Positions 51,501 to 54,500 of a stretch of 64,000 bases of DNA are shown piece after piece. Origin of the DNA: a virus (Duplodnaviria; Heunggongvirae; Uroviricota; Caudoviricetes); IMG/VR virus record IMGVR_UViG_2684622670_000009, positions 1 to 64,000 of that record. One strand, given 5' to 3'. The position numbers were made by a program. Position 1 is the stretch's first letter, and each line of letters begins with the position of its first letter.

Positions 51501-54500
51501 CGTTTAGTTGAACGATCGTAGATCGCCTGGATAACAGAAAACTTTGAAAAAGCCCGTGGCAGAAGAGAATGCAGAACTTCGTCTTTCAGGGAATCCTTTT
51601 CTGTTTTCTTCAGTTTACGCGCTTGTTCTTGCTCAAGTTTTTCAATTTTTTCTTGAATAGCTCGCTGGATAACCGGCAGGGGAAGAATTTTTGTTTCGCG
51701 CTTTGCTTCAACAAGGATAAAACCATTTCCATGCATAGCGATAACTTCGGAATTATCACCAAATGGCGATACAAAACCGAACTTGGCCATATCCTGACTA
51801 CCGCATGGCGTGAAAAGGATCATTTTCTTTTTATCTTCTAAGTCGGTCAGATCCGCCTCACGAGAAAGTTTATAAATAGTAATGTTTTTCCAGTGCTTAA
51901 ACATGTTGTAACCCTTGAATATCAACCACAGAAAGCTCGTCTTTGTAGAAAAAGGCCAAGTTGTGGCCCCCCCTCGTTTGAGCGTATGAGCTGGGACCAA
52001 TTTCGTTCTTCCAGACAAATGGCTTCAAATCCGTACGGCGAAGCATAAAAACGCGATTTGTTCCGCTCTGATTCCCAATGAGGCAAAAGCCTTCTTTCAC
52101 CTTGATAGCCTGCAAGTTGTCGAGTTCACCGCTGGTTACACGGCTATCGAACTCCTTGCGGCTTATTAGCTCCATCTGCATCTGACGACTCCAAACAAAT
52201 GCCCATTGAAGGGCGATGGCTGAATGGTACCGAAAACACGACATAAAAAAAACAATATTTATTAGTGCAATTTTATAGTAAGTAAACGCCATACAGACCA
52301 CAAATAACCTAAGTTAAAATAACGAAAATCAGAGCAAATCATTGGTGATGACGTGGCAAGTATTGCAACAAAAGACAGCATTTGTTCGGGGCACGGAGGA
52401 TTCCCATCCAGGCCTCCTGTAGAGAGTGAACCACTACTTAAAGTCAACGGAGTCGAAGTGTTAGTTGATGGTAAGCAATATGCACAGCATACCGATGGAA
52501 ACAGTACGCACGGTGGGCAAGCTATATCAACCAGGGCATGGTTTACCGTCAATGGTAAAGGGGTCGTATGCGTTGGTGACCCTGTTTCATGCGGTTCTAC
52601 CGTAGCGTCAGGAGACGGCCTAGTTCAGGTAAGTTAGGAGATATCATGCTGGAAAAAGACTACCAGTTATCCGCATATAAAAAATTGGCCGCAGCCGGTG
52701 GGATGAAAACACCTGGCGCCATAACATCGGCACGAAACAGTGCTAACACGGCAAAACAGCTTGCAGAAGAATTGATCGGATTAATTTTGGATACAATTGT
52801 CTATCCCGACACTATTACCAGCTATGTTTCAACGATCAGAACAACCACAACCGGCTTAACGAACATTGGAGAACTGGCAACTAAGCACGCGGACCTGTTG
52901 GCTGGTTATGCAGATCTGTCAATGCTGCTTCAACTCAATATTGGTTGGGATGTTTACTGCCGTGCTAATGAGCGAGAAGTATCAGAACTGCCGATCTCTA
53001 TTGCCATTGGTGATGTGACTATTACTAAATCGCTTGAGGACGCTGTAAACGCGCTTAATACATCAAGTTTAGTCACTGCTATGGGGGAGATTAACCAGAC
53101 CCTTAACACTGGCTCAGGAAGCTCGTCAGGCTCTGGTTCAGGCGGCGGCACTGCCACTCCCCCACCAGCACTAACAGAAGAGCAAATTGAATCTCTGAAA
53201 GTAGCAACTGAACAGTTTGGGGTTGTTTTCAACCAGACAACAGCGCCCACAACTGCGTTACAACAGCAGTATGAACGAGCGAATGAAAGCGCCAACGTAG
53301 CCATAACTGCTTATAACCATGCTATCGGTACCGCGCTTGCGGAAGCATCAGCAAATAAGGCCAGCACAGCCAGCGCAGTCGCCGCTTTGGTTCCTGATTC
53401 TGTTCTTGATGAATTAAACAAAGCGGCACGGTAACAAAGGACTTCATTGATAATTTTTCTTCAGGAGGAAGACATGTCATTCTTTTCTACGTTAAAAACA
53501 GCTTTGTCTTTGAAGGAGAAACTTGCTGCTACTGGTGTTCTTGTTCTGATTTGCGCACTTGTTGGTGCTGGGTTTGCATGGGAACGTCATCAGCTAAAGC
53601 AAGCCATGGAGAAAATTGGCAGTCTTGATCAGGCTGTTAAGGAACGTGATAAGTCAATAATGGATCTTAACCAGACCATTGCGACGATGAACAAAGCAGA
53701 GCAACATTTTCACAGCCAGGAAGTGAAAAATGAATCAGAACAAGCCAAGTATGCTGACAGGCAAATGGAACGAAAAGCTGAAGTTCAGAAACAACTTGTT
53801 GCGGCGGGTAATGTTCGCCAGCGCATTCCTGCTGACACTCAGCGGTTGCTCCGGGAGTCGATCAGCGAATTTAACGCCGACGCCGACAAAGATTAATCAC
53901 CCTGCCCCCAAAAGTGCGTTTATGTGCAGGATGCCAGAGTTTAGCAGTGAATATTTTGATGATCTGCCAGCCTATATCCTCGATACAGAAACGATGTTGA
54001 TGGGGATTAACAGGAAGAATCGCAACGTTAATGATTACAACCGCGCTATCAGCGGTAACTAAAAGGGATTTTTATGTCTGATAAAGTAACAGTAAAGCAA
54101 ACTATCAACAAAGCGACTTCAATCTACAAAATTGAGCACATCACAGTTGGCAAGCCAGGATCTGAACAATACCGTCATGCTTTCGAGCTTGCCGATCAGC
54201 TTGGTTTAAAACACCCGGATTGCATCGAGCATGTATTTCCGACCTATGCTGATGAGCAATGTACTCATGTTCTTACCGAAGAGGATTTTTTCAGCACTGA
54301 AGAACGAGAAGGCGTTGATCGCTGCATTGGTGTGATTTGTTCTTCGGTAAGTGATGAGTTATTCCCTAATGTGCCTGAATATGGTGGTATTGGATACCAA
54401 TTCCTGTACGAGGGCGATGAGCTTAAATGCTATGAACATGGTCTTCTCATCGAAAGCGTAGAATAATACAGCTTCCTTCCAACCGGCTTTGTTGGCCGGT

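Follow-up and report, generated by a model that had tools for sequence, protein, structure and literature searches.

What is the role of a lipoprotein gene that starts inside the gene of a membrane-anchored protein, runs past its end in another reading frame and lies beside a plasmid origin, far from the endolysin gene? The question is raised by two genes of the window, as we call the whole stretch of 64,000 nucleotides (nt) analysed here (positions 1 to 64,000 of the IMG/VR record IMGVR_UViG_2684622670_000009, a member of the Caudoviricetes). A sequence-only reading of this DNA had proposed that the two genes have the architecture of a spanin pair. Judged by its similarities, the window is a P1-like phage-plasmid and the gene pair is ppfA/mlp of the P1 family, which very probably encodes a two-component spanin. 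The pair is already known as the P1 spanin and has been catalogued as such since 2007; the case has little discovery value because both the pair and its spanin reading are already in the literature and in RefSeq.

The predicted products of ppfA and mlp

Translation of the open reading frames (ORFs) bore out what the sequence-only reading had given for the coordinates, the +1 frame, the lipobox LTLSGC and the extension of the lipoprotein gene beyond ppfA. The two genes, with lengths in amino acids (aa), and the signals within them are the following.

53463-53468, plus strand: Shine-Dalgarno sequence AGGAGG of ppfA, 5 nt ahead of the ATG; Kongari 2018 Table S1 marks this site too
53474-53896, plus strand: ppfA, predicted i-spanin gene, 140 aa, from ORF and translation
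53522-53578, plus strand: codons of the predicted PpfA transmembrane helix, residues 17-35, LAATGVLVLICALVGAGFA
53718-53723, plus strand: Shine-Dalgarno sequence AGGAAG of mlp, within ppfA, 6 nt ahead of the ATG at 53730
53730-53896, plus strand: dual-coding overlap of 167 nt, counted from the ATG at 53730
53730-54062, plus strand: mlp, predicted o-spanin precursor gene, 110 aa, from the ORF, a match to phrog_30284 and codon wobble
53838-53849, plus strand: mlp lipobox L-S-G-C, with predicted cleavage between LTLSG and the Cys encoded at 53847-53849

PpfA contains only one strongly hydrophobic stretch, residues 17-35 (Kyte-Doolittle mean of 2.35 over 19 residues). It is preceded by K8, K14 and K16 and is hydrophobic throughout the aligned relatives, bar P0012 with its aberrant N-terminus; outside it the protein is charged and Gln-rich. 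The predicted topology is a cytoplasmic N-terminus, a single transmembrane helix and a helical periplasmic domain, and PpfA thereby has the type II arrangement with a single N-terminal transmembrane domain that is expected of an i-spanin (Summer 2007; Kongari 2018). AlphaFold2, run on an alignment of 19 sequences, gave a long helix of residues 13-110 and a second one of residues 120-137, interrupted at 111-119 (AAGNVRQRI), at a mean predicted local distance difference test (pLDDT) score of 70. A heptad pattern was significant for residues 37-75 (p = 0.0006) and not significant for residues 76-110. By the model and the heptad test the periplasmic domain is thus mainly helical or coiled-coil, as in i-spanins, and the membrane-anchored coiled coil announced by the sequence-only reading is borne out only in part, for the anchor and residues 37-75.

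The mlp frame is +1 relative to ppfA ((53730-53474) mod 3 = 1) and stays open from 53727 up to its end at 54062, which lies 166 nt past the ppfA stop. Mature Mlp would comprise 71 aa, starting with the lipidated Cys (Cys40 of the precursor), followed by Ser at +2 and Gly at +3. Sorting to the outer membrane is predicted because residue +2 is Ser. Four Pro lie within the first 25 mature residues and six of the 71 residues overall are Pro (linker TPTPTKINHPAPK); a single further Cys occupies mature position 27. On inspection of its sequence Mlp therefore has the features sought in an o-spanin, namely a small predicted outer-membrane lipoprotein with a lipobox Cys and no Asp at +2. PpfA has no periplasmic Cys outside the transmembrane domain and Mlp has one, which is invariant; the counts in Kongari 2018 Table S1 are identical, and the same table gives a LipoP cleavage site at position 39 of P1 Mlp.

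The start of mlp is likely the conserved ATG at 53730, as in the P1 annotation, which would give the 110-aa precursor with a signal sequence of 39 aa. This ATG, or one that lies one codon later in relatives, is kept in five lineages, and AGGAAG or AGGAGG is found 6-9 nt upstream of it in all five. The sequence-only reading rightly placed the start within the 3' part of ppfA but chose a less likely codon, ATG 53811. That codon would yield 83 aa with a signal peptide of 12 residues and no basic n-region, it is missing in three divergent relatives, and it appears to be the least probable start. A further alternative, TTG 53799 (ATG in two relatives), would provide a canonical signal of 16 aa without a ribosome-binding site. 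Mature Mlp is identical whichever start codon is used.

Relationship to P1 genes and to spanin families

With a few swapped modules, the entire window maps onto P1 in reverse orientation. Over positions 53300-54500, which cover ppfA, mlp and the downstream gene upfA, the DNA identity determined by megablast was 98.1% to P1, 97.3% to P7 and 98.3% to SJ46. The comparison with P1 mlp and ppfA that the sequence-only reading had recommended thus gave a direct match, 98.1% at the DNA level to genes so named in the P1 record. PpfA is 98-99% identical to its P1 counterpart and Mlp differs from P1 Mlp by three residues (L23W, A32V and I55V). The P1 genes ppfA (gp064) and mlp (gp063) and the P7 genes upf62.7 and upf62.4 are orthologues of the pair, with the same overlap and frame. 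In RefSeq, mlp is labelled 'Rz-like spanin' in P1, P7, RCS47 and SJ46, and the labels Rz and Rz1 occur in other records. An annotation of homologues with an unrelated function, which the sequence-only reading had named as an argument against its own proposal, is therefore not what we found.

Searches against PHROGs assigned both proteins to families annotated as 'Rz-like spanin', PpfA to phrog_89 (8.6e-25) and Mlp to phrog_30284 (4.3e-56). P2 LysB falls in the PpfA family, phrog_89, at 5.8e-61. P2 LysC belongs to phrog_456, and it and Mlp match each other's families at about 1e-4 (LysC to the Mlp family, 5.4e-4). An hhalign comparison of the Mlp alignment with P2 LysC gave a probability of 88%, an E-value of 2.8e-6 and 32% identity over 65 columns, and this match takes in the lipobox and the second Cys as well as the signal peptide and the Pro-rich linker. 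The link to the P2 pair thus consists of a common remote-homology cluster, phrog_89, on the PpfA side and a significant profile match on the Mlp side. The P2-family models of NCBIfam, TIGR03495 and NF038368, gave concordant scores below threshold (phage_LysB, 18.0 bits for PpfA with a cut-off of 92.75; P2_Rz1, 14.5 bits for Mlp with a cut-off of 27), so that neither protein reaches the curated cut-offs of the LysB and LysC models. In a Pfam scan PpfA gave just coiled-coil noise below threshold and Mlp gave no match. A lambda-type Rz was assigned to phrog_13, not phrog_89. By profile similarity Mlp is a remote homologue of P2 LysC, and by their anatomy ppfA and mlp are of the spanin class, distantly tied to the overlapped pair of P2 and outside the sequence families of lambda Rz/Rz1.

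P2 LysB/LysC is the prototype of the overlapped spanins and has the same architecture: the gene of the 96-aa o-spanin starts inside that of the 141-aa i-spanin and passes its stop. Tail genes precede or follow both pairs. In contrast, the sequence similarity between the P2 pair and the pair of the window is marginal, and P2 lysB and lysC sit in a lysis cassette beside the endolysin gene K and lysA, whereas the P1-type pair lies tens of kilobases (kb) from lyz and from lydA/lydB. We take the P2 holin gene Y to lie upstream in that cassette. Lambda Rz/Rz1 is the prototype of the embedded spanins and the system in which the mechanism was worked out. The predicted topology is alike, with a type II protein of the inner membrane whose periplasmic domain is helical and a small lipoprotein of the outer membrane that contains Pro and is read from the +1 frame, and the lipoproteins Rz1 and Mlp each have one periplasmic Cys. 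The differences are that Rz1 is wholly embedded in Rz whereas mlp runs 166 nt past ppfA, that the lambda pair belongs to the S-R-Rz lysis cassette, that PpfA is without a periplasmic Cys, and that PpfA/Mlp and Rz/Rz1 have no detectable sequence relationship.

Conservation of the overlap in both frames

The overlap encodes the PpfA C-terminus in frame 0 and, in frame +1, the Mlp signal peptide and the first 16 mature residues. As mlp overlaps ppfA on the same strand, the arrangement is that of the 'overlapped' spanin class. A six-frame scan of the 64 kb detected five lipoprotein-like ORFs, compared with about one per mononucleotide shuffle. A lipobox alone is weak evidence, since shuffled sequence yields about one lipoprotein-like ORF per 64 kb. 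Among the five ORFs, only mlp overlaps a gene for a protein with an N-terminal anchor, at the 3' end of that gene.

The +1-frame lipoprotein is retained in four further lineages. These include three divergent relatives, namely Cronobacter phage JK004, a Salmonella contig and a Klebsiella contig, in which PpfA is 58-63% identical. Their lipoboxes are LTLSAC, LTLNGC and LTLNAC, and the lipobox Cys is invariant over the five lineages. The protein identity of Mlp to these relatives is 63-66%; its second Cys is invariant and a C-terminal block of 30 residues is nearly so. In the part that belongs to mlp only, mismatches to the three relatives amount to 20.0% at the first, 13.9% at the second and 48.2% at the third position of mlp codons, a distribution that marks a translated frame. 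Nucleotide identity to the same relatives is 75-78% in the overlap, 60-62% in the part of ppfA alone and 72-74% in the part of mlp alone, and reaches 84-87% in the 3' 86 nt of the overlap. The overlap is thus the best-conserved DNA within the pair, as two superimposed coding constraints would make it. By these substitution patterns, purifying selection is shown to act on both the ppfA and the mlp frame.

The lipobox LSGC was intact in 83 of 83 P1-like loci and PpfA was full length in 78 of them. These loci are three near-identical ones from a scan of genome contigs and 80 at 97-99% identity from a scan of viral contigs; they serve for counts of integrity, not of diversity, and the divergent lineages came from other searches. 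L011 (JAFAFU010000017.1) is a contig of 5.9 kb labelled 'MAG: Bacillota bacterium' with a ppfA that is 99% identical; the label is probably an artefact of binning or contamination from an enterobacterial P1-like element.

In several public annotations of P1-like elements the o-spanin gene is cut to a fragment of 45-52 aa or not called, and the full +1-frame ORF is intact in each case. The under-called genes are listed below.

L002, 3958-4092: gene_24 of phage JK004, 45 aa
L003, 4431-4589
L004, 4001-4978
OP279344

That gene callers tend to overlook overlapped o-spanin genes has been documented as a bias of annotation (Kongari 2018). The practical value of the present case lies here: such programs often miss the o-spanin gene or shorten it, and mlp should be annotated from the ATG at 53730.

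A probable two-component spanin and its place in the literature

If the mechanism of ppfA/mlp is that of lambda Rz/Rz1 and P2 LysB/LysC, from which we infer it, PpfA would be held in the inner membrane by its N-terminal helix, with a mostly helical domain of about 100 residues reaching into the periplasm. After export, Mlp would receive its lipid at precursor residue Cys40, signal peptidase II would remove the signal sequence, and the mature lipoprotein would be sorted to the outer membrane. It would probably form homodimers through its single conserved periplasmic Cys. PpfA and Mlp would meet across the periplasm in a complex that passes through the meshes of the peptidoglycan and is restrained by it. 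Lysis would end when destruction of the wall by the endolysin Lyz frees the complexes to collapse and to disrupt the outer membrane, which the published model explains by fusion of that membrane with the inner one. The overlap of the genes would couple ppfA and mlp in one transcript.

Bednarek 2022 (PMC9025707) presents ppfA and mlp as the partially overlapping spanin genes of P1, in an operon unlinked to lyz/lydD/lydE and to lydA/lydB/lydC. In Kongari 2018 Table S1 the entry for P1 is 'ovl'; gp064 is the overlapped i-spanin, without periplasmic Cys, and gp063 the overlapped o-spanin, with one. The overlapped i-spanin/o-spanin layout read from the DNA alone therefore agrees with the PHROGs families, with this table and with PMC9025707. 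The Introduction of PMC9025707 labels ppfA as o-spanin and mlp as i-spanin. These labels are swapped: by its features and by Kongari 2018 Table S1, PpfA is the i-spanin and Mlp the o-spanin. We found no paper later than Bednarek 2022 and Kongari 2018 in which ppfA/mlp was tested.

Neighbouring genes and expression signals

The pair belongs to a same-strand cluster in the order upfC-upfB-ppfA-mlp-upfA, which is followed by a hairpin and then by the plasmid origin. The flanking features and those of the endolysin region are the following.

52353-52637, plus strand: upfC, PAAR-type tip of the tail spike (NCBIfam PAAR at 4.8e-9, P1 annotation), first gene of the cluster
52646-53434, plus strand: upfB, baseplate 'tripod' protein (phrog_1559 at 1.5e-137, aligned from residue 20)
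54074-54466, plus strand: upfA, 130 aa (phrog_1453, unknown function), last gene before the origin
54479-54503, plus strand: terminator-like hairpin (54479-54495) with T-rich tail, from a consensus scan only
about 711-1268, plus strand: lyz, endolysin gene (PF00959 at 4.1e-22, map to P1)
605-623, plus strand: LPlyz late promoter motif, an exact match to the P1 LPlyz sequence

The gene upfB lies directly upstream of ppfA and its ORF has an alternative start at 52589. In a cryo-electron microscopy study of 2026 (PMC12810830), UpfC is placed at the tip of the tail spike and UpfB is the baseplate 'tripod'. Late expression of the pair is plausible because the first two genes of the cluster encode baseplate proteins. 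The gene upfA is not a constant partner: it is absent or replaced in L003 and L004, and 13 of the 83 P1-like loci have no blastn match to it over 300 nt. The hairpin after upfA likely marks the end of the transcription unit; it is the only positionally sensible result of the consensus scan.

When the window was scanned with the P1 LPlyz motif, matches appeared a short way ahead of the ORFs of lyz, prt, pacA and gene 23. The uhr-upfC intergenic region contains no late-promoter motif and has a C1 operator there instead: at 52253-52273, AATATTTATTAGTGCAAT is the reverse complement of the operator of the C1 repressor (P1 Op68/Odmt). This operator sits in a divergent intergenic region, which places the leftward uhr-hrdC-dmt operon under C1 control. 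For the upfC cluster, which runs rightward, a promoter was not evident. A candidate late-promoter site at 53013, ATGTGACTATTACTAAATC, lies inside upfB and is not conserved even in P1; we rejected it as a chance match.

As the sequence-only reading had noted, the pair is far from lyz, roughly 52 kb within the window; lydA, lydB and lydC lie outside the window. The lysis genes of P1 are unusually scattered, and the odd placement of the pair is real but already described. A replicon follows the pair wherever one was identified, of the P1 type in 43 and of the type of the window in 36 of the 83 loci. The claim that the pair stands beside the origin holds in that a replicon is near, and needs correction in that upfA and the hairpin at 54479-54495 intervene before the first iteron at 54618. 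The plasmid origin is a neighbour of the pair, not its functional partner.

Alternative explanations

Several observations weigh against a spanin. Alignment of PpfA with the single P2 LysB sequence was not significant (hhalign), nor was its BLASTP comparison with lambda-type Rz (E = 3.2), and neither protein matched the Rz and Rz1 models of Pfam, which we take to be PF03245 and PF06085, at E <= 0.1. Lambda Rz presumably has a periplasmic Cys and PpfA has none. The scan of the window with the LPlyz motif found no Lpa-type late promoter upstream of the upfC-upfA cluster, and a sigma-70 and terminator consensus scan of 51900-54800 gave counts no better than those of shuffles and no convincing sigma-70 promoter. 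Counted from the ATG at 53730, the Mlp signal is unusually long at 39 aa, and Kongari 2018 Table S1 flags it for P1 as 'Too long signal sequence'. The assignment in PMC9025707 derives from predicted features and is credited to Summer et al. 2007. Finally, a genome-wide CRISPR interference (CRISPRi) screen gave plating efficiencies of 0.24 and 0.19 for mlp and of 1.3 and 1.2 for ppfA and scored both as non-essential, and the same study scored lambda Rz as essential. This plating result is weak evidence against a spanin, because spanin defects are often conditional.

One alternative is that a spanin-shaped pair mainly serves the prophage-plasmid state. It would be constitutively expressed from sigma-70 promoters beside the replicon, and its two envelope proteins would, for example, exclude superinfecting phages or modify the envelope in the manner of the lipoproteins lambda Bor, T5 Llp and phi80 Cor. 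To our knowledge, such exclusion lipoproteins act alone. This alternative would fit the P1 record, which annotates upstream of the pair only the predicted sigma-70 promoters P1ppfA and P2ppfA and no late promoter. It would also fit the lack of a late-promoter motif upstream of the pair, where the sole partial match is the unconserved one at 53013, as well as the replicon, of either type, downstream in every locus in which one was identified, and a CRISPRi knock-down that leaves plating unreduced. Against it, lineages of 58-63% identity conserve not only the lipoprotein but also a type II membrane partner and the overlapping frame, both proteins belong to spanin families of PHROGs and Mlp is a remote homologue of P2 LysC. 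Moreover, the same-strand genes immediately upstream encode baseplate proteins, which are made in lytic growth, and our independent scan did not recover the predicted sigma-70 promoters. We consider this alternative highly improbable. A related form of it, in which the pair is kept beside replicons of any type because it is also expressed in the lysogen from sigma-70 promoters and there forms an envelope-bridging or exclusion complex, with lysis secondary or absent, is very unlikely; if true, it would also account for the unchanged plating on knock-down.

It is extremely doubtful that PpfA and Mlp instead function with the tail-tip proteins UpfC and UpfB in virion assembly or entry rather than in exit. 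The pair does come closely spaced after the spike-tip and tripod genes, in the same orientation, and it is separate from every other lysis gene. However, the lipobox and the transmembrane anchor direct both proteins to host membranes and not to particles, and the family links point to spanins. Mixed lysis and tail operons are normal, P2 lysB and lysC lying directly before the tail genes R and S. In addition, PMC12810830 reports the identification of almost all virion proteins from head to tail, and the passages considered list neither PpfA nor Mlp, no targeted search for them having been made.

Scarcely credible is the remaining alternative, that ppfA is the only real gene and the +1-frame ORF an unexpressed accident of its sequence, for although gene callers skip or truncate mlp (the 45-aa fragment in JK004 and the missing calls in OP279344, L003 and L004) and shuffled sequence produces lipoprotein-like ORFs at about one per 64 kb, such under-calling is the bias documented by Kongari 2018, 166 nt of mlp lie outside ppfA and carry 48% third-position mismatches versus 14-20% at the other positions against the three divergent relatives, the ORF with both Cys and the 30-residue C-terminal block is conserved at 63-66% protein identity and intact in 83 of 83 loci, and the strong Shine-Dalgarno sequence and the ATG are conserved. 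The two-component spanin therefore stays the preferred reading of ppfA/mlp.

A swapped replicon and other modules of the window

P1 and the window are alike on one side of the locus, from uhr through upfC, upfB, ppfA and mlp to upfA, and differ on the other. Similarity to P1 breaks off at 54604, just past upfA, and the origin that the sequence-only reading had called oriR turned out to be not P1 oriR but that of a swapped replicon of the Rep3 type, with the following features.

54618-54720, plus strand: five iterons, core TTGACTATACGCGA, 21-22 base pairs apart, repeats of the plasmid origin
54766-55686: gene of a Rep3-type initiator (Pfam Rep3_C and Rep3_N), downstream of the five iterons

Downstream of the pair P1 and P7 have the IncY oriR/repA, whereas the window has this different initiator and iterons belonging to it, with a T5orf172/GIY-YIG ORF inserted and a parA that shares only 65% identity with that of P1. 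The maintenance module as a whole, 54467-59300, is not the IncY oriR/repA of P1, and its parA is about 65% identical to the P1 gene. Further iterons in both orientations are found at 55402 and at 55685-55949. The module is 98-99% identical in about 600 plasmid records, and its best matches are P1-like phage-plasmids of Escherichia albertii. An ORF of 269 aa (55979-56788, plus strand) separates parA from the rep gene and its iterons, a position at which P1 has incA alone. It has a T5orf172 domain, and plasmid records annotate it as GIY-YIG nuclease family. This ORF may be a homing-endonuclease-like insertion in the replicon.

Another lipoprotein-like ORF, of 132 aa (13096-13494, minus strand), with the textbook lipoprotein signal MIKNKRKLLTTLILSLVLCG ahead of its Cys, lies in a segment without P1 similarity; it has no Pfam match and no adjoining membrane-anchored partner. 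From about 5700 to 12600 the window has no similarity to P1 and carries at least an outer-membrane usher gene at 6318-8759 (PF00577 at 1.7e-146, plus PapC_N), which suggests chaperone-usher fimbrial genes. This segment sits where the reference P1 carries darB and is unusual cargo for a P1-like element. Lastly, a complete type I restriction-modification system (25613-31690, plus strand; hsdM 520 aa, hsdS 426 aa and hsdR 1038 aa) takes the place of the P1 segment between the pmgT and phd-doc sides.

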